Virus record (IMG/VR): IMGVR_UViG_3300037400_003286
DNA from: a virus
Taxonomy: Duplodnaviria; Caudoviricetes
Length of the DNA stretch: 64,000 nucleotides
Strand: one strand, 5' to 3'
The notes under the pieces are model-generated. The model had not been told where the DNA came from and made no database searches. It worked only from the letters and a program-made list of their open reading frames with translations. Position numbers and translations under genes: made by a program. Below, one piece after another: positions 31,608 to 63,881 of this stretch (positions within the stretch are counted from its first letter, which is position 1; the number at the start of each line of letters is the position of its first letter).

Positions 31608-32054
31608 TTATCCATTTTCGGCTTCAAGATCCTCTTTCCAGTAAGGGTAATGCTTCTTTTCGTTTTCTGAATTATCCCATCTAATCTCTTGCATTCCACA
31701 ATAAGGACACTGATTAAGAACGAAATTCATCTTATCATCATTTTCATCCGTTATTGTATCATCATAGTCAGATAACATAAAATTGTTACTCATTGACACT
31801 TTGTGTCCACAATTAGTACAATGACCATTCATAATATCTGGTTCCTCTATTCTCATAGAGATGTCCTCTTCTCCATTTTCATAGAATGGATAATCCTTCC
31901 TTTCCTCTTCTGGAACCTCAGTACATTCATATCTCGCACCACAATAAGGACAGTGAAACATATAGGTTTGTCCATAATCGACATCACCTTCCAATACTTC
32001 TTCAAGTTCAAGTTCATGCGCACATCTTGTGCAAATAGCACCTTCTGTAATCAT
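31608..32054 (-). CDS. Zn-ribbon repeat protein
   Basis: Four CxxC motifs arranged as two repeats, each ending E.K.YP(F/Y). Confidence 0.7.
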   Translation of the reverse strand: MITEGAICTRCAHELELEEVLEGDVDYGQTYMFHCPYCGARYECTEVPEEERKDYPFYENGEEDISMRIEEPDIMNGHCTNCGHKVSMSNNFMLSDYDDTITDENDDKMNFVLNQCPYCGMQEIRWDNSENEKKHYPYWKEDLEAENG

Positions 32055-33562
32055 TACTGTAAATTGTTTTTAAGTTTCTTTTCTCTTTCTTTTAATATAT
32101 CGATCAGATGATATTTCTCTTTTTGAGCTTTAACCATCATCTTTTTATATTCCTTACGTTTAGCGAAGTAATCACTAAGTATCTTAGGAATGAAACCTTC
32201 AAATTCGTTAGTGTAAACACATCCGTTTGTACACTTGATTTCATTCTCCTTCGGTATATGGTTCTTATCCTTGAAAAGTAACGTATCTGGTGATATGTTG
32301 AACTGTCTCATTGTTGTAGGATAAAGAGAAGCATAGTCCAAGCAATATACGTTTCTGTATATTCCAGGAATAGGTGAAAACACGAAAGCACCTTCATATT
32401 CCTTCTTTTCCTTATCTTTCTTTACAACAGGGAATACTCTGTTCTCTCTGTAAAGATATTCCGCCTGTACGATTTCGATACTCTTTGTAGAACTGTATGT
32501 TGATAGCACTGGAACATTCATAAGGGAAGCCAAACCGAACATAACAGAACTTGTCTTCAGTTTCTTATCGATCTCTCTAATAAGGACACTATCGATAGCA
32601 TTATAGAAAACGTATTCCTTTTTCTGCTTTTCCCACATTTCCTTGAATCCAAGCTGGTGTACAACCTTTTTAACACCAAGAACCTTATCTGCAACCCAGT
32701 CAAGTTTATTACTAACCTTAGGAGAAATAGATCGATCATGTTTCTTGTATAACTCCATATAGTCATACATACACTTATGCATCGGTAGCTTAATGTTGTC
32801 GGCTGCAACATCCTGTGGCTTATATGTGAACCACGTCTTCGTTGGAGATAAACTTGTTATATCAAGACCTAACTTTGGAACACGGTTATAAAGATAAGGC
32901 CAGTCATATCCGAACCAGTTCCATCCTGTTACACACTCAAGTTTATCTATAAAATTAAAGAAAAGATCATTCAGTAACGAAAATTCAGATGCATGATACC
33001 TGTACACAAACTTATAATCAGTATCAAATTGCTTACAATGCTTCTTTATTTCGTCTTGAATCCATTTAATTTCATCCTGTGATAGATTAGCCAGACCTAA
33101 CACGTAAACGGTATCCTCGACAACTATAGACACTGTATTGACAGGTCTCTTTGCGTCTTTAGCCTCTGGAAATCCTTCATCATCAACGTCAACCTCAATA
33201 TCCATGAATGCTGTTTTCGGAATATACATCTGACGCATTTCCTTCAACTGCTCATTTTCTGGGAACCATCTCTCAAGATCCATTATAATTTCATGGACAC
33301 GCTGCTCCGTAAATTTATCTGTAATAGGCTTTTTTACAACTGGCTTTCCGTCCCATGACTTATATAAAGTATCTGGTGTATCATCCTTTGTTGCGTATTT
33401 CCATTGATACATCAATTCATTTGGAATCATCCAAAAGAATGGTTTAACGGTTTGATTCTTATCAACATACGATATATACAGGAATTTCTGTGCTCTACCA
33501 TATTGATCAAGCACTGGTACACCATTCCTTGTATAATCGTGTATTTCCGTGTTAACTATCAT
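32054..33562 (-). CDS. Family B DNA polymerase, N-terminal subunit (exonuclease + motif A)
   Basis: DIEV (ExoI), GWN..GYDWPY (ExoII), YNAIDS (ExoIII), YEGAFV, DYASLYP, NISPDT. Ends in the first finger helix. Confidence 0.93.
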   Translation of the reverse strand: MIVNTEIHDYTRNGVPVLDQYGRAQKFLYISYVDKNQTVKPFFWMIPNELMYQWKYATKDDTPDTLYKSWDGKPVVKKPITDKFTEQRVHEIIMDLERWFPENEQLKEMRQMYIPKTAFMDIEVDVDDEGFPEAKDAKRPVNTVSIVVEDTVYVLGLANLSQDEIKWIQDEIKKHCKQFDTDYKFVYRYHASEFSLLNDLFFNFIDKLECVTGWNWFGYDWPYLYNRVPKLGLDITSLSPTKTWFTYKPQDVAADNIKLPMHKCMYDYMELYKKHDRSISPKVSNKLDWVADKVLGVKKVVHQLGFKEMWEKQKKEYVFYNAIDSVLIREIDKKLKTSSVMFGLASLMNVPVLSTYSSTKSIEIVQAEYLYRENRVFPVVKKDKEKKEYEGAFVFSPIPGIYRNVYCLDYASLYPTTMRQFNISPDTLLFKDKNHIPKENEIKCTNGCVYTNEFEGFIPKILSDYFAKRKEYKKMMVKAQKEKYHLIDILKEREKKLKNNLQ

Positions 33563-52187: not shown

Positions 52188-53552
52188 TTAAAATAAACTT
52201 GGTGTATATGTAAGTGTCGGAGGAATTTCAAAATATCCCATAGCAACAACTATACGATTCAACGGACTTAATAACATCTTCTCAAACTGAATATCAATAT
52301 CGATTGCTGGCGCAAATTCAATTGGGAAAGAATCAGGAACAAAGCCGAACACTGTATCTTCACCAGTATAATAGAATCTTACCTTTTCTCCAGACTTTAA
52401 TAGTGAATACTTACTCTTGTATTTCTTTCCCTTGTTGAACAGCATATTGTTATAAACTGCTGCCGCCCTAACATGGATAGGAATAGGAAGCTTATCGTTT
52501 GTCAGATATTCATTACCGTTCTCATCAACCTTTGTCTTAAACTGGAAATATTCAATTTCTGGTGTCTTGTCGTTCTTGACAAAATTCTCATAGTTTGATA
52601 TTCCTTTTGTAATGGAAATATCATTAGGATTCTGCATTACGAAACGTTTCTTGATTTCCTTCAGCTTTGATACTATCTCACTAAGTGTTGGTTTTCTTCC
52701 AGTATTCAGAATACCCATTACATAATTGACGAAAGTCTTCATTTCCTCACGACAATAGTCTGTAGTCGTTCCCTTGACAACATCGAAACCAGTATATGTA
52801 ATATGTTCAAGAGGTTCAAATCTTGCACCAGAATCGATCCATTCAACATCACACATATAATTCTTCTTTGCAAGCATGATGATTGTACGGGAAATCTTCT
52901 CAAGTTCAAACTTCTCGAAGTTGTTCTTACAGTGATTTCTTTCAGCATAATTATCGAACTTGTCATCCATATATGATTCAAGAATCTCCTCATAGAAAGC
53001 AAGGTCAAATTCAAGCTGTTGATCCTCTGGAATATAACAAGCATCAATCAAAGGCTGAAGTGTAATATATGCAGAATTATGAACAAGTATGTCATTTGCA
53101 AAGAACGTATGGGTGTCATCACCCATTTCAATGTCATACACATATTCATTATCATACTCACCTGTACATAAGCATGATACGACTTTATCGGATCCTTCAA
53201 CAATATCACCATACATTACTTCCAATGATAATACATAATCATCTGGATGTATCTCGCAAGGTTTAACTTTATATAGTTTATTGTCTCTCAAAACCATCAT
53301 AGAATGATCATTGGTAACTGTAACAGAATGACCGAATCTCGTTGTTATAGTCCACTTTGGTTTTGATACCTTATGGCGAATTATACGCTTTACGTCACCA
53401 TAGTATAATTGAGAAATGTTTGTAAGGGTCGATCCTTTGAAATTCAATACCTTATCATCAGTATAAACAGATTCATGTCCAGCAAGTGTGGACTCTCCTT
53501 TATTAGATGAACGTATCTTTCTTATTGATACTATTTTTTCAAATTGACTCAT
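52188..53552 (-). CDS. Family B DNA polymerase, C-terminal part, fused to a split-intein C-fragment (aa 1-159, 53076-53552)
   Basis: VTNDHS (block B), YVYDIE...FFANDILVHN|S; then SAYI, FELE, AKKNY, GFDVVK, PIHVRAA..YN, SGEKV. Confidence 0.92.
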   Translation of the reverse strand: MSQFEKIVSIRKIRSSNKGESTLAGHESVYTDDKVLNFKGSTLTNISQLYYGDVKRIIRHKVSKPKWTITTRFGHSVTVTNDHSMMVLRDNKLYKVKPCEIHPDDYVLSLEVMYGDIVEGSDKVVSCLCTGEYDNEYVYDIEMGDDTHTFFANDILVHNSAYITLQPLIDACYIPEDQQLEFDLAFYEEILESYMDDKFDNYAERNHCKNNFEKFELEKISRTIIMLAKKNYMCDVEWIDSGARFEPLEHITYTGFDVVKGTTTDYCREEMKTFVNYVMGILNTGRKPTLSEIVSKLKEIKKRFVMQNPNDISITKGISNYENFVKNDKTPEIEYFQFKTKVDENGNEYLTNDKLPIPIHVRAAAVYNNMLFNKGKKYKSKYSLLKSGEKVRFYYTGEDTVFGFVPDSFPIEFAPAIDIDIQFEKMLLSPLNRIVVAMGYFEIPPTLTYTPSLF

Positions 53553-54723
53553 TATTTATATATTTTTTAATCTCAGATAAAATACTATTTCTAACCTTTC
53601 TCTTATTATGTTTATAGTCATCCTCCCAAACAGTTATAATTTTGACACCTATAGTGTCTTTTATATCATTTTCTCTCTGTTTTTCAGATTCCCATATATC
53701 TCCAACGATTCTACCGTTTTGTTCATATAACCCATCAAAAATATCAGTTTCTTTATATACTCCTGGTTTTGGATGAAATTTTATACCATTAAACTCTATA
53801 CATATATTTAAAGTCTTATCATAAAAATCTAAATAATATAAATGATTATTTTTTGTATAAACCTCATATTCATAATTATATTCAGCAAAATATATATCAT
53901 GATCTTTAAATATATCATCTGTTATCAAAGACTTAAACAATTCTTGAGAAATAATAGAATACGATTTGTTTATATATCTGGCATTATTGAAATTATTCCA
54001 TTTATTTAATCCTTCTTCTTCACCATATGTAGTTATAAAATATTCTCTTGTATTACTATAAGCCTCTTTCTCTCTATATTTGTTCCATTTTTCAAGACCT
54101 TCCTTCTCACCATATCTTTTTATAAAATTATCAAGAGTACACGATCTACTTTTATTATAATTATCAAATTCCTCTTCAGTCATTCCATATTTTTCATGCT
54201 TATATTCATATGTGTTTGTTATTCTCTGCTTTTCCAGATAAATATCCCATCTTTTTTGCCCTTCTTCTTCACCATATTTTTTAATAAATGATTCCAAAGA
54301 ACGTATACACAATTCATTATTTTTTTGATTTATTTCTTCCTCTGGAATATCAAATGCATATTGTGCATATATTGTTGGTCTATTAAAAACCCTAGATTTA
54401 TTTTTTATATCAATCCATTCTTTAAAATGTTTTGACATGCATTTTTCACAAACACATAATTTATAAACCTTTCCATTTATCTCTTTTGTTGATATTGGTG
54501 ATGTACCCATATAAACTTTTGGATAATCTTGATACGCTCCTCTAAACCCAACATTCTCATAATACAGTTCACCGCCACAATATTTACACATATTCCTATT
54601 TTCATATATAGGATTATCTTTTAACAAATCTGCAAATTTTTCATATGATTTATTATTATTAAAATCTTCACATCTTTGTTTATTATAATAATTAACTTTT
54701 TTCCCTGATAATACGTCTGGCAT
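53539..54723 (-). CDS. Free-standing homing endonuclease (Vsr-like) between the split-intein halves
   Basis: Three FI..YGE.EG..W repeats; LDFY...IEFNG..FH...VWEDD. Confidence 0.85.
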   Translation of the reverse strand: MPDVLSGKKVNYYNKQRCEDFNNNKSYEKFADLLKDNPIYENRNMCKYCGGELYYENVGFRGAYQDYPKVYMGTSPISTKEINGKVYKLCVCEKCMSKHFKEWIDIKNKSRVFNRPTIYAQYAFDIPEEEINQKNNELCIRSLESFIKKYGEEEGQKRWDIYLEKQRITNTYEYKHEKYGMTEEEFDNYNKSRSCTLDNFIKRYGEKEGLEKWNKYREKEAYSNTREYFITTYGEEEGLNKWNNFNNARYINKSYSIISQELFKSLITDDIFKDHDIYFAEYNYEYEVYTKNNHLYYLDFYDKTLNICIEFNGIKFHPKPGVYKETDIFDGLYEQNGRIVGDIWESEKQRENDIKDTIGVKIITVWEDDYKHNKRKVRNSILSEIKKYINNESI

Positions 54724-54794
54724 AATAAATTATAAATAGTTTTATTTATTATATTTATTTACAATTTTATGGTGGCTCCTGCATATTTTTGTAA

Positions 54795-55910
54795 TTAAGT
54801 AAAAATTTCATCGTTATATAATATATCATCAGGATATACATAGATGATTTTATCCGATCTTTTTACTTTAACTTTATCGTTCTTATTATATCGTATAATT
54901 TTTCCAGATTCTGTTTTTATTTCAAAAACATCTTTTTCAGAATTTTCTTCATAAAAATCTTCTATAGTAATACCATCAACATGTTTCTTTGTACGAATAA
55001 TAGTATCTTTTGAAACAGAGTCTGTATTATGAACAAGAATACCGTTTGCAAAGAAATTATGATAATTATCTGTATCAGAATCCACTTCAATATCGTAAAC
55101 ATACGCAACATTTCTATTTGATACACACTCTACAGAAAATCCAGAAACACAAATAAGATCATTTTCACCTTTCAAAAATAAAAATGTATCTTTATCTATA
55201 TCATCAGGTTTAACTTCCTTAAAATTAGTATCATAATATTTTAATAAAGAATGATCTTCTGTACAAACAACATAAGTATCATCATTAAACACTTTATATA
55301 ATCTTTTGTTTACTTTGTGTCGCATAACATACTTTATTGGCTTCTTGTCAATCTTTCCAGTAATTAAATCGACACAATATATGCTTCTGTTAGATTTTAC
55401 ACGTTCTTTACCAAACTGATCGATCTCTATATCTGTTCCTTCATTGAAAAGATCTGCAATCATCATAAAAGAATCATCCGAAAGTGTTATCAAACTATCA
55501 CCAACAACGGAATCACCATATACCTGAACGGTGTCTAATTTGATCGTATTATTTTTAGCACACTCAAGGAATTGATCATATTTGAATGCATCACCGAATA
55601 TGTTTCTCAATCTATCAGCGATACGTTTATGACCCTCATAGTCCTGGTTCCAATGATTGTTTATATAATCATTGATTTCAATAACCGAAAACTTAATCAG
55701 ATCCTGTCCCTGAAGAGTAATAGACTCTGCAATGTCTGAATCAGCAAGGTTAAAGAATGCCGTACCGAACACACCATATACACTATTAATAAACGTCTTT
55801 GCGGACAACTGCATAGTGTTATAGTATTCCTCTTCGTTCTCAAGATGATCGATCCTCGATTTAAGCTCTTCAATCGAACAAGTTTCTGGATTAAAATTCT
55901 GTTCTTCCAT
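54795..55910 (-). CDS. Family B DNA polymerase, middle part, with a cis mini-intein (55026-55511) and a split-intein N-fragment (54798-55019)
   Basis: KTFINSVYG (motif B), ITLQGQ, YGD|SVVGDS...TEDH...FFANGILVHN|TD|SVSKDT...stop. Confidence 0.92.
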   Translation of the reverse strand: MEEQNFNPETCSIEELKSRIDHLENEEEYYNTMQLSAKTFINSVYGVFGTAFFNLADSDIAESITLQGQDLIKFSVIEINDYINNHWNQDYEGHKRIADRLRNIFGDAFKYDQFLECAKNNTIKLDTVQVYGDSVVGDSLITLSDDSFMMIADLFNEGTDIEIDQFGKERVKSNRSIYCVDLITGKIDKKPIKYVMRHKVNKRLYKVFNDDTYVVCTEDHSLLKYYDTNFKEVKPDDIDKDTFLFLKGENDLICVSGFSVECVSNRNVAYVYDIEVDSDTDNYHNFFANGILVHNTDSVSKDTIIRTKKHVDGITIEDFYEENSEKDVFEIKTESGKIIRYNKNDKVKVKRSDKIIYVYPDDILYNDEIFT

Positions 55911-58439: not shown

Positions 58440-59195
58440 CTATTCTAAACTATTTATTTCAATTGTAAGTGGCTCATATGCAATTCTGTAATTCTCATCT
58501 TTCATGCTTACATTAGCAACCTGTATTCCGTTGTAATTTTCAAGATGATGGTTTCCAGAATGAATATGACCAACAAACCAATATCTTATAAACTTATTCT
58601 GAATTGCTTCTGTAAGTTCTATTGATCCATACTCAGGCTGATTAGGAAGCTGCAAAGAAACACCAGTATCGTTTACGAATTTTCCTGGACTGTGAGTCAA
58701 AAGAATATCAACCTTGTCTGGTATCTCTGCAAAAGACTCTTTCAATCCTTCTGAACTTTTATAGAATGCCCAATTACTTAAAACTGGTATGTGTGGTGTT
58801 CCGTAAAATGTGATTCCTTCATATTCATATGATGTATCCTGAAGGTATACAATCTTTCCTGGAAAATCAAGATTGTCTTCAACCATGTCAGTGAAATCCT
58901 CATATTGCAATTTATGATTGGACCAACGTGGTGTTCCAACCTTTTCCATATAATCATTGAACATTTTCTGGAAAACAAAATCGTGATTTCCAGCGATAAT
59001 AATCACCTTCTCACAATCAAGTTTCTCACACCAATTAACGAAACGCCCAGCCAGCCAAGCTACACTCTTAGTATAATTTCTCTGAATCTCAAGCGGAACA
59101 ATATCGCCACAGATACAAAGGACATCACAAGGATCTATAATTGGAAGATCCCCGTGAATATCCGATATTGCTGTTATTTTAAGTTTCTTAATCAC
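58440..59195 (-). CDS. Metallophosphoesterase
   Basis: SDIHG, CGD, GNHD, THSP, GHIH. Confidence 0.9.
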   Translation of the reverse strand: MIKKLKITAISDIHGDLPIIDPCDVLCICGDIVPLEIQRNYTKSVAWLAGRFVNWCEKLDCEKVIIIAGNHDFVFQKMFNDYMEKVGTPRWSNHKLQYEDFTDMVEDNLDFPGKIVYLQDTSYEYEGITFYGTPHIPVLSNWAFYKSSEGLKESFAEIPDKVDILLTHSPGKFVNDTGVSLQLPNQPEYGSIELTEAIQNKFIRYWFVGHIHSGNHHLENYNGIQVANVSMKDENYRIAYEPLTIEINSLE

Positions 59196-60342
59196 AATAA
59201 ATCTGTCTTGTTAAAAGTTGACCACCAATCATAGTGTCATAGCAAATATATTGCTGTTGAGGCTTCTCATACTCGAATCCGTTTGTCAAAGCAAATGAAT
59301 TGTATGAAATGATCGATCCGTTTACAACAGCATTAGGAGTATTCACACTTGAATGGAAATGTCCTATGAAAATCATATCCTGATGGAACACCTTCTGATA
59401 CTTCAGGCAAAGTCTATTCAATGCTGGATATATACCGCAAATAGTTCCTGTACCACCAGATTTAATCTGGAATCCATGAGCAAAAATAAACACCTTATCG
59501 TCAACGGTATTTACAATCGCAAGCTCACTCTCAGGAATGTAGAACTCAATAGGAAGATCAGTCAACTCACACTGCTTCTTGATGTTCTGGTACATCATCC
59601 ACTCATAGCTCATCTTATAACCGTTATTGTGCTGGATCTTCTTTGATGTTCTTGAATGATTACCAACGATACCTATGAAGCGAATCTTCTTCAACTTTGG
59701 AAGTTCTGGATTCTCACACAGATATTTAAGTCCACTGTAAATGAGTGATTGTGCCTTTAATGTAGCCTCAAGAGGAGAAAGCTGGTTAGTCTGCTCAAGT
59801 TCCTGATGAATATATCCAGAGATAGTATCACCAAGTGAAGCGAAGATAAGTTCATTTACATCATCCTGTGCAAGACATGCAGCCAAATTACGGAAATAAT
59901 TCTCTATACGTCTTTCTGCAATTTCAAGATTATACTCGTTAAGGAAGTTGACAGACTCTGGAGTAACAGTTTCCTCGATATGAGCATCACTGAATAAAGC
60001 TACAGCATATCTGTGTCCTTTCTTAGTCGAAAACGGTTTGAACTTATAAATCTGGAAAGGCTGAGACTCAACCTCCTTAGCTTTCAGGAACTCCTGATAT
60101 TCTTTATCATCCTCGTGATTTTTCTCGACAACAACCACTTTCGTGTTATCATCTTCCTCAGCCTTTGCTCCTATACAGCTATAAACAACACCTTTATGTT
60201 CAAAATATCCTTTTTCGTTTATATCTCTTCTGATTCTTTTTCTATCAACATGGATAGACTTTGCCATTTTACGTATACTCTCAAAAGAACTGCCATCATT
60301 TCCGACAATCTTATTAGGTACACTCGTCTTTACGTTTTCCAT
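59188..60342 (-). CDS. Calcineurin-like phosphoesterase with an N-terminal HTH-like region
   Basis: SDAH, LGD, GNH, HG, GHFH, NGS. Confidence 0.85.
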   Translation of the reverse strand: MENVKTSVPNKIVGNDGSSFESIRKMAKSIHVDRKRIRRDINEKGYFEHKGVVYSCIGAKAEEDDNTKVVVVEKNHEDDKEYQEFLKAKEVESQPFQIYKFKPFSTKKGHRYAVALFSDAHIEETVTPESVNFLNEYNLEIAERRIENYFRNLAACLAQDDVNELIFASLGDTISGYIHQELEQTNQLSPLEATLKAQSLIYSGLKYLCENPELPKLKKIRFIGIVGNHSRTSKKIQHNNGYKMSYEWMMYQNIKKQCELTDLPIEFYIPESELAIVNTVDDKVFIFAHGFQIKSGGTGTICGIYPALNRLCLKYQKVFHQDMIFIGHFHSSVNTPNAVVNGSIISYNSFALTNGFEYEKPQQQYICYDTMIGGQLLTRQIYCD

Positions 60343-62474: not shown

Positions 62475-63881
62475 TCAAAAAGTATTATAATTTTTTAATA
62501 TTAGACTAGTCTTTGAAAAACACCTTGAAAACTCCGTATGCGTTTCATCCAGAGAAAGTCTATATCTGGTTTTAGACTTTTTTAGAGCATAATATATATC
62601 CTTCAGACCAGTACCATCTTCTATATTAAATTCTTCCAACGACTTAATATAGAAAATTTTGTATGCACCTAAATCTGGGAATATTATATTACGTTTTATT
62701 TCTTTTATTTTTTCTATATGCTGTAAATTGAATTCATATCCACGTCTTCCTATTTCAATAGAAGCAAGAATCATATCAGGAAGATTTAAAGAACGAAATA
62801 AGAAATTACCTACAAATGAACTGAAATCTGGTTGTACTTTAATAAATTTAATATCAAATATATTACAACGTTTCTGTAAATTTAATTCAAGTTTATTCCT
62901 ACACCAGTTATTATTAACTAACCTATTGTATCGTTTACCTCGTTCAGCATCCTTTGATTTTATATTTAAATCCTCTATGCAGAAAGACTCACATTGATAA
63001 TAAAGACATATATCGATTAATTTTTTAGAAATCTGATATGTTTCGTATGTACGTTTATTATTCAGATATATCTTTTTTGGATCTTCTGAATCTGTATGAT
63101 TTTTTATTAATTTTTCAGATATTTTATTAATCTGTTCAATAGAAAATACACCAGACTTAATTATATTAAACTCATTCTCAGATCTCCAATCAACTATAGA
63201 CCAACCAATATAATTTGGATTCATATCTATAGACATAATACGATTTTCAACAAACCTGTCACGTTTATATTGTTCTATTTTTGATTCATCAAAACTTATA
63301 TAGATATATTCTCTATCCAATGAATAAGTTAATGATACTTCTTTCTTATTCTGCAAATCATATAATCGTGATAAAACCTTTTCACGTTTACCATAAACAC
63401 CTTTAAGCTCAAGTATATAATGATTATGTCTATCGTTTTTGAACTCTATCGAATGCAGATCCTGATTTATCTGAAATTTTCTGTTTCCTTTCTGATTTGA
63501 TTCACCAAGAGAACATAAATTTGATAATCTATGTGAAAGATATTCATCTTTTGATATTAAACCTTTACATCTTCTTATATAATTCTTTCTACCCCCAAAT
63601 ATAATACGTCTTTCTGAATTATCTGATTTTTTAAGTCTATTTACTAAATCAGATGCTTGTTGTTCAGCACAGGATACCATGTGACTATCCATCAACTCAA
63701 CATTATTAAGTTGTGTTTTCATAGCATCCTTTATTTGTTTGGCAGACCAACCATCAATTACACGATTATATCCATAATGAAGAAGTGAACTGTATTGTTT
63801 CATACATTTCAAAATAAAAGCATTTGCTTCTTCATTTACTGAATATTTAAATTTATATGTAATCAATGATTGTGTATTCAT
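62475..63881 (-). CDS. TnpB-related RuvC nuclease (Cas12f-like size), no transposase in the window
   Basis: IFGG, GNRKF, SIDMNP (RuvC-I), IEDLN (RuvC-II), V.P.FSS.VG, PD...ASIEIGRRG. Confidence 0.8.
   Translation of the reverse strand: MNTQSLITYKFKYSVNEEANAFILKCMKQYSSLLHYGYNRVIDGWSAKQIKDAMKTQLNNVELMDSHMVSCAEQQASDLVNRLKKSDNSERRIIFGGRKNYIRRCKGLISKDEYLSHRLSNLCSLGESNQKGNRKFQINQDLHSIEFKNDRHNHYILELKGVYGKREKVLSRLYDLQNKKEVSLTYSLDREYIYISFDESKIEQYKRDRFVENRIMSIDMNPNYIGWSIVDWRSENEFNIIKSGVFSIEQINKISEKLIKNHTDSEDPKKIYLNNKRTYETYQISKKLIDICLYYQCESFCIEDLNIKSKDAERGKRYNRLVNNNWCRNKLELNLQKRCNIFDIKFIKVQPDFSSFVGNFLFRSLNLPDMILASIEIGRRGYEFNLQHIEKIKEIKRNIIFPDLGAYKIFYIKSLEEFNIEDGTGLKDIYYALKKSKTRYRLSLDETHTEFSRCFSKTSLILKNYNTF

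Follow-up and report, generated by a model that had tools for sequence, protein, structure and literature searches.

How is a DNA polymerase to be made from a gene that is interrupted twice inside its catalytic motif, at two points only six nucleotides (nt) apart, the second interruption being itself broken open by a further gene? This question is raised by a locus at positions 52188-55910, with all parts on the minus strand, of the DNA from IMG/VR virus record IMGVR_UViG_3300037400_003286. The whole stretch of 64,000 nt is called the window in what follows, and the gene is that of a PolB DNA polymerase carried by a large phage from gut or rumen-type metagenomes. Read along the minus strand, the order is YGD, an intein of 162 amino acids (aa; intein 1), the dipeptide TD, the start of a second intein (intein 2) and a stop codon, an endonuclease gene, the remainder of intein 2, and SAYITL. 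We consider it likely that the locus is a composite mobile element seated in motif C of a split PolB, in which intein 1 splices in cis and the fractured intein 2 splices in trans.

Anatomy of the interrupted polymerase gene

A preliminary description of the window had reported two inteins two residues apart in motif C, with the second distributed over separate open reading frames (ORFs). This was borne out by the ORFs and by Pfam: each of the two outer ORFs matched Intein_splicing above the cut-off and also matched DNA_pol_B (Table 1). The middle extein was read directly from the sequence as 6 nt encoding TD. Deletion of both inteins in silico gave YGDTDSAYI, as the description had predicted, and the intein-less alleles L041 and L042 read exactly the same. 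The proposal that intein 2 is split around a free-standing homing endonuclease gene also held, with split-intein gene halves flanking that gene on one strand, as in the fractured genes of Dassa et al. 2009 (PMC2677866). The end of the endonuclease gene, stop included, and the start of the downstream ORF share 14 nt. The 74-aa N-fragment and 159-aa C-fragment that had been assigned to intein 2 are correct as ORF boundaries, but the intein-derived parts within them amount to only 28-29 aa and 143 aa. The exonuclease gene of the same PolB lies downstream of the polymerase-domain genes as they are transcribed, at a distance of approximately 19 kilobases (kb), and the polymerase before splicing is spread over three ORFs at two loci.

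Table 1. Positions of the parts of the polymerase locus, and of the separate exonuclease gene, in the window. A slash marks the point of intein insertion.
Feature	Position	Strand	Description
Upstream ORF	54795-55910	minus	371 aa; starts just before PolB motif B and runs through VYGD, intein 1, TD and a 74-aa Ser1 element to a stop
N-extein	55512-55910	minus	aa 1-133, motif B to VYGD; DNA_pol_B and phrog DNA polymerase match
Intein 1	55026-55511	minus	contiguous 162-aa Ser1 mini-intein at YGD/TDS; +1 residue Thr
Middle extein Thr-Asp	55020-55025	minus	ACA GAC, 6 nt; TD of YGDTDS
Intein 2, predicted working N-piece	54934-55019	minus	about 28-29 aa; Ser1, block A hairpin, short helix
Endonuclease cassette	53505-54933	minus	1,429 nt inserted in intein 2
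Vestigial N-intein tail	54798-54933	minus	46 aa; stop 54795-54797
Middle ORF, endonuclease gene	53539-54723	minus	394 aa
Leader of downstream ORF	53505-53552	minus	Met plus 16-codon basic leader; part of the cassette
Downstream ORF	52188-53552	minus	454 aa; HN closes the first 159 aa, then come SAYITL and the PolB thumb
Intein 2, predicted working C-piece	53076-53504	minus	143 aa; RH motif (IRHKV), block B TNDH, block F, terminal HN
C-extein	52188-53075	minus	Ser+1, AYITL, end of PolB palm and thumb, stop; DNA_pol_B and phrog matches
Exonuclease and motif A part of the same PolB	32054-33562	minus	separate 502-aa gene; tblastn match to PTm1 ORF-236, E 1.5e-27; NCBIfam PolB matches

Intein 1 has the sequence features of a class 1 intein (Ser1, TxxH, HN and a +1 nucleophile). 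Ser1, the block B motif TEDH, the RH motif (MRHKV) and the terminal HN are all present, Thr is the next residue, and the Pfam Intein_splicing score was 37.2 against a cut-off of 35.8. Its best solved relative is 9hth (E 4.8e-16). The insertion point, VYGD/TDS, is the pol-c site as defined in PMC549080. Intein 2 is inserted at DTD/S, with Ser as the +1 residue, and its C-piece scored 44.8 bits against the same Pfam family. The two inteins are homologous (33% identity, E 3e-16), and in a tree of 26 inteins, which took in phage sequences only, the 8 located at YGD/T separated from the 18 located at DTD/S with a support of 99/96. Within the DTD/S group, contiguous, canonically fractured and atypically fractured forms were interleaved. 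Neither intein 1 nor intein 2 has an endonuclease domain, and both are mini-inteins without cysteine (Ser1). They are related but distinct, and lie at neighbouring sites.

The break in intein 2

The position of the break was fixed by comparison with L040, an allele in which intein 2 is contiguous. By blastn, L040 2879-2952 matched window 55007-54934, and L040 2951-3093 matched window 53504-53362; the insertion junction is precise to 2 nt, with L040 2952 at the end of the N-piece and L040 2951 at the start of the C-piece. Because the L040 matches abut, the cassette is an insertion at a single point in codon 29. The N- and C-pieces of intein 2 neither overlap nor leave a gap. The N-piece aligns with the first 28 aa of the contiguous inteins in L005, L028, L040 and P0005, and the contiguous intein of P0005, which is without the cassette, is 95% identical to the C-piece. 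The C-piece also aligns with the whole L003 intein, starting at approximately residue 27 of the latter, with 49% identity over 147 aa.

Intein 2 was aligned both with relatives that are fractured in the canonical way (PTm1, L003, Lak) and with contiguous ones. The intein part of the upstream ORF consists of block A (28-29 aa), a jump of approximately 50 columns, and a copy of the last 46 or so aa of a canonical N-intein. This tail copy stops where the canonical N-intein ends, but NKND stands in place of the block B TxxH. The downstream ORF begins with the 16-aa leader and continues with the intein from about residue 29 to its end, unbroken at the canonical split place. When the ends of canonical N-inteins were made into a profile, the tail scored 14.9 bits against it, a score reached by 0/1000 shuffles, and the score of the L009 tail was likewise reached by 0/1000 shuffles; the tail is a genuine homologue of canonical N-intein ends. 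Between the stop of the tail and the endonuclease gene the cassette also holds a spacer.

The split does not fall at the usual position. In the alignment, the 46-aa tail and the 16-aa leader, which the preliminary description had counted as intein, are the flanks of the cassette and not working parts of the intein. The split is of the atypical kind: the N-piece contributes block A only, and the downstream ORF carries N3, C2 and C1, with TNDH, RH, block F and HN all present. As judged from these motifs, intein 2 would be an atypically split intein akin to PolB16 OarG.

Two other arrangements were tried and dropped. One took the downstream ORF as a near-whole intein with a block A of its own at about residue 28; the stretch in question is internal in the homologues L003, L005 and L040. 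The other started from a redundant full intein together with a canonical N-intein, followed by reciprocal decay. It was dropped for the window, where the L040 junction is one point with a 2-nt overlap, and the L009-type leader is ambiguous under this model.

The cassette flanks are charged alike in the window, L009, L044 and L045, with a net negative charge at the end of the tail and a net positive charge on the leader. In the shifted cassettes, the tail end carries -4 and -7 and the leader +3 and +5 (window 54798-54857 and 53505-53552; L009 4684-4743 and 5917-5955). The end of the N-intein ranges from neutral to basic in the canonical relatives (-1 to +2), and the start of their C-intein looks acidic by eye. 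The charge polarity of tail and leader thus appears, from the sequences compared, to be reversed relative to the canonical relatives.

Among these canonically fractured PolB genes, that of Prevotella phage Lak-C1 (L004 3617-4462) has an in-frame TAG as codon 2 of its N-intein, and L035 and L038 have a sense codon (Gln) at this position. Recoding of TAG is reported for Lak phages, and the in-frame TAG of Lak-C1 fits with this.

An AlphaFold (AF2) model of the endonuclease, built from eight homologues, had a predicted local distance difference test score (pLDDT) of 78 and showed a Cys-rich region at the N-terminus, helical repeats, and a nuclease domain of Vsr-like fold at the C-terminus. Model residues 254-390, approximately, were superposed by VIA-align on the catalytic domain of I-Bth0305I (3r3p_A) with Z 10.8 and a root-mean-square deviation of 2.5 over 97/97 residues. 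The Z values of the C-terminal domain were 10.9 with the DUF559-type endonuclease 3hrl and 10.1 with E. coli Vsr (1cw0_A). Foldseek of the same model returned only E-values above 0.07, the VIA-align superposition alone being clear. At the level of sequence, neither Pfam nor NCBIfam nor a profile run against PDB sequences yielded a match at threshold; weak profile matches were obtained to MTES_1575 for the endonuclease and to DUF559 for its PTm1 homologue. The PTm1 gene, to which the endonuclease is 28% identical, is annotated 'VSR endonuclease', and atlas look-alikes are named 'DNA mismatch endonuclease family'. The nearest IMG/VR homologues are located between the halves of canonically fractured PolB inteins in Lak-like phages. 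By its modelled fold the protein is predicted to be a Vsr-like homing endonuclease of the I-Bth0305I type.

Alleles, relatives and block transfer

A scan of viral contigs with the first ORF of the locus found no relatives; these were obtained through the third ORF, the endonuclease and a scan of metagenomes. L039, an independent 2-kb metagenome contig from AUXO, has the same first ORF including its stop and ends just after it. L044 and L045, both from Logan and found as homologues of the third ORF, contain all three ORFs with the same junctions. L046, from ENA, has the endonuclease gene and the third ORF, without the upstream gene on the contig. Endonuclease identity to the window was 67% for L044, 55% for L045 and 74% for L046, and Ser1, TxxH, RH, HN and Ser+1 are kept in all four contigs as far as each reaches. 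Clusters of the fractured third ORF comprised 17, 44 and 33 member sequences. The arrangement in the window is not a one-off.

A more distant form of the break was found in L009 and L010, where a cassette of this type follows residue 13 in a related intein and the polymerase has no intein 1. Compared with the window, the endonuclease is 36% identical, and the tail is 48% identical over 27 aa with the same left end and a dead block B. Many 545-aa database proteins resemble the L009/L010 type.

The preliminary description had called for a survey of related phages for alleles with zero, one or two inteins, and all of these states were found. The intein-less alleles, L041 and L042, have one 433-aa ORF reading VYGDTDSAYITL. 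The contiguous YGD/T intein occurs alone in L006 and the contiguous DTD/S intein alone in L005, L040, P0005 and P0010. Both inteins are contiguous within one chain, with the same TD between them, in L007, P0012, P0022 and P0029 (35 members). Because such contiguous-tandem alleles are common, two folded inteins separated by two residues are evidently tolerated.

The contiguous-tandem allele in L007 (5404-7899) is 831 aa, approximately 65 aa longer than the others (762-768 aa), and the extra length appears to be an insert in the C-extein. In L008, a contiguous PolB intein is followed by Thr instead of Ser after DTD; at least 3 other ORFs of this contig (1142, 9634, 12010) have intein-like ILSHN/S junctions, and L008 looks like an intein-rich phage.

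Several alleles have exteins almost the same as those of the window. The N-extein of L040 is 98.2% identical in nucleotides, with no amino-acid change. The C-extein of P0010 is the same as that of the window by eye, and P0010 is without intein 1 and has intein 2 contiguous. The combination of the same exteins with another intein set in L040 and P0010 indicates recent allele replacement within one phage population, and intein content differs between nearly identical phages. Both contigs are without intein 1 and have an unbroken intein 2, which is only about 75% identical to that of the window in nucleotides.

The comparison with L039 gave the opposite pattern, within the first ORF that this contig covers (the cassette and the C-piece are outside its reach). 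Nucleotide identity to the window was approximately 77% in the N-extein and rose to 98-100% across intein 1, the TD dipeptide and the start of intein 2 (its N-piece), the change falling no more than about 20 nt from the left boundary of intein 1. Because of this jump in identity, the DNA from intein 1 through the N-piece of intein 2 must have moved as a block between diverged genomes. The suggestion that each insertion destroys the homing site of the other was not supported by these results: the sole endonuclease lies inside intein 2, its point of insertion is intein DNA and not polymerase DNA, and the evidence points instead to intein 1 travelling together with at least the adjoining N-piece of intein 2.

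Two genes elsewhere in the window were also noted. A 468-aa ORF at 62475-63881 on the minus strand was considered as the exonuclease part of PolB and was dropped, being without similarity to PTm1 ORF-236. Its TnpB-related match (TIGR01766, E 6e-4) is weak and falls below the cut-off, RuvC-like motifs are visible by eye, and a transposase gene was not noticed in the vicinity of the ORF. The 384-aa ORF at 59188-60342, on the same strand, matched the phage exonuclease family phrog_284 (E 3e-38) and had a weak N-terminal match to NUMOD1; its product could be a nuclease with a DNA-binding module of the homing-endonuclease type.

Splicing, rival explanations and known systems

In the reading that we favour, intein 2 was once contiguous, and the 1.43-kb cassette would have entered its codon 29 at a single point. 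The source of the cassette would be another intein of this family, fractured at the canonical place. On the simplest account, the endonuclease gene and two coding flanks left such an intein and entered the contiguous relative at an ectopic point, where the copied tail would supply the upstream ORF's stop and the Met with the 16-aa basic leader would restart the downstream ORF. The splicing of both inteins, the role of the tail and leader, and the target of the endonuclease are what we infer from here on. Intein 1 would splice in cis and join YGD to TD; the short N-piece of intein 2 would dock on the C-piece, probably helped by pairing of the acidic tail with the basic leader; intein 2 would then splice in trans to give YGDTDSAYI; and the spliced product would act with the exonuclease subunit made from its own gene. 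Since the N-piece of intein 2 is unable to fold by itself, intein 1 could well be the first to splice. A fixed order is not required by the architecture, because contiguous-tandem alleles are frequent, and the suggestion of the preliminary description that splicing is probably ordered is not supported.

Docking of the two parts of intein 2 was modelled with TD and the intein part of the upstream ORF as one partner and the intein part of the downstream ORF as the other. The model reached a score of 0.81, against 0.00 for the best of 3 controls. A score of 0.81 was reached by 58/80 solved complexes and 2/110 mismatched pairs, counts that are only rough, own alignments having been used. The runs agreed in at least 95% of contacts, with a pLDDT of at least 88 for the partner, and block A was placed against blocks B, F and G and the RH/TNDH region. 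The best-defined of these contacts, to block G and the RH/TNDH region, are those of a normal intein.

Several observations weigh against this reading. The docking result may reflect likeness to solved split inteins and not binding. The interface list takes in the whole leader (residues 1-18 of the downstream ORF) and much of the tail, and pairs of tail and leader residues are not visible in it. The tail has no catalytic role, because its block B is dead, and it diverges fastest of all parts (24-35% identity, versus 55-66% for the endonuclease and 49-61% for the intein core), so that it may be weakly constrained. A hairpin upstream of the endonuclease gene was not supported, as the fold of 54700-54830 was no better than those of shuffles (z 0.16); this hairpin is an accessory of the described fractured loci and not a requirement of the layout. 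A docking clasp of tail and leader is offered here as a hypothesis which the charges fit, and against which the fast divergence of the tail counts.

A wider claim, which we hold only tentatively and judge somewhat doubtful, is that the cassette is a self-sufficient 'gene-fracturing kit', whose two coding ends, the acidic tail of an N-intein and the basic head of a C-intein, are a non-catalytic remnant of a split intein and serve as a docking clasp. If this were true, the element could break an intein, and perhaps any protein, at an ectopic point with the halves still meeting. Canonically fractured inteins would be turned into atypically split ones, and a neighbouring endonuclease-less intein would hitch-hike, so that a mobile unit of three parts would sit within six codons of a catalytic motif.

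The polymerase might instead be held together without trans-splicing, its pieces assembling non-covalently through the intein pieces with the tail and leader, and the C-piece carrying out at most C-terminal cleavage. There is precedent in Aeh1 NrdA, where functional tails from a mobile endonuclease insertion hold the fragments together (PMC3045599), and a marked C-terminal cleavage side reaction was reported for PolB16 (PMC10189870); the opposite charges of tail and leader in the window, L009, L044 and L045 would also suit such an assembly. We nevertheless regard it as improbable. The break would leave the second catalytic Asp separated from the Ser of motif C, and the PolB16 relative at the same site trans-splices. 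Furthermore, Ser1, TxxH, RH, HN and Ser+1 are kept in the window, L044, L045, L009 and L010 despite endonuclease identity down to 55%, and the C-piece residues are kept in alleles represented by the downstream gene only (L046, P0015, P0016, P0033, P0048 and P0094). Splicing chemistry under selection is the only expectation that fits this conservation in fractured alleles.

The degenerate intein fragment with its dead block B, and a polymerase gene in four pieces with the distant exonuclease part included, could also be taken as signs of a non-functional gene decaying after successive hits by mobile elements. This is very unlikely, given that all of the ORFs are open with their catalytic residues intact, that the layout recurs in at least 4 further diverged contigs and in populated clusters of 17-44 members, and that the division between exonuclease and polymerase genes is common to PTm1 and intein-less relatives. 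The recurrence, the kept residues and the populated clusters likewise make an assembly error unlikely. Similar samples do contain alleles whose exteins are near-identical (L040 and P0010 compared with the window), and these could in principle be joined into a chimera, or a sequencing error could have made the stop. We consider the chance of either to be close to negligible, since the stop, the junctions and the position of the cassette are the same in independent assemblies from different sources (L039, L044, L045, L046), and since the downstream ORF of the window is part of a contig of 196 kb. Neither chance nor assembly accounts for the layout. The preferred reading is still that of a composite element with one intein spliced in cis and the other in trans.

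The ingredients of this element have been described already: pol-c inteins, PolB inteins at DTD/S including an atypically split one, Vsr-like fractured genes, insertion sites two residues apart, and neighbouring inteins. In the literature searched, we found no two inteins present at once and separated by a dipeptide, no cis intein directly before a trans intein, no endonuclease cassette with coding ends that can be recognised as what is left of a split intein, and no nucleotide-precise origin of an atypical split. The locus gives a nucleotide-resolution case of how an atypical split can arise, by ectopic insertion of a cassette from a canonically split relative. Together with its relatives it forms a natural allelic series of one essential gene (neither intein, either one, both contiguous, and both with one fractured), with near-identical exteins in some members, which is rare material on the invasion, co-travel and loss of inteins and homing endonucleases. 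The dipeptide with its catalytic Asp between two splicing domains is a stringent natural test of what inteins need from their extein context. For protein engineering, it offers what appears to be a related cysteine-less intein pair two residues apart, one predicted to act in cis and one in trans with an N-piece of 28 aa. It also raises a simple question, namely whether the vestigial tail and the leader help the halves to meet.

Sites two residues apart and two inteins in one gene both have parallels in known systems. The a and c intein sites of DnaB are two residues apart, with only b and a described as occupied together (PMC4760082), and the neighbouring inteins MCM-a and MCM-d occupy one gene jointly, with single-intein alleles in the population (PMC10643990). 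The window resembles these systems in showing that sites so close are possible, and in having two inteins in one gene alongside single-intein alleles. Coding tails that arrived with an endonuclease insertion are shared with Aeh1 NrdA, in which the mobE insertion left tails on both fragments that are essential for assembly (PMC3045599). Unlike the window, Aeh1 NrdA has no intein and no covalent rejoining, and the tails in the window may or may not have such a role.

Intein 1 is at the position of the inteins found at the classical pol-c site, YGD/TDS, in archaeal, Mimivirus and split Nanoarchaeum Pol proteins (PMC549080), and shares with them Ser1 and Thr+1. It differs in being a mini-intein without an endonuclease domain, and among solved structures it is closest to 9hth, a PolB intein of phage type and not an archaeal one. 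In the fractured genes of Dassa et al. 2009 (PMC2677866), the split-intein halves flank a Vsr-like endonuclease gene in one orientation, and in the model of that study the invading element supplies a stop upstream and a Met downstream. One terminase intein in that study was fractured such that its C part has all of the N motifs except N1. The window has the same arrangement of a Vsr-like endonuclease in the same orientation between the halves, including the overlap of the endonuclease stop with the downstream start. It is unlike those loci in that the flanks of the element are recognisable split-intein remnants, the insertion point is fixed to 2 nt, a second intein lies 6 nt upstream, and there is no significant upstream hairpin.

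The PolB16 OarG intein, from a sheep gut metagenome (PDB 8cpn/8cpo), is inserted at GDTD/S, has an N-piece of 15 aa and trans-splices in vitro (PMC10189870). It is like intein 2 in its host protein and site, in having Ser1 and Ser+1 and no cysteine, and in combining a short N-piece with a long C-piece that contains block B and RH ('NX'). The relationship is only distant, as the C-piece of the window matched 8cpo with E 7e-5 and 9hth is closer. PolB16 is further unlike the window in its 15-aa N-piece, for which no tail is reported, and the paper describes it without an endonuclease cassette, vestigial flanks or a second intein.

Homology to the window in both intein and endonuclease sequences was found in PTm1, PTm5 and Lak megaphage (AP019524, MK250029). 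Their PolB is likewise split into exonuclease and polymerase parts, with an intein at DTD/S and an endonuclease annotated VSR between its halves. They differ in having no YGD/T intein and in being fractured at the canonical place, after block B. In PTm1, a Tenacibaculum phage, the exonuclease part is also encoded separately, two genes upstream of the polymerase part.

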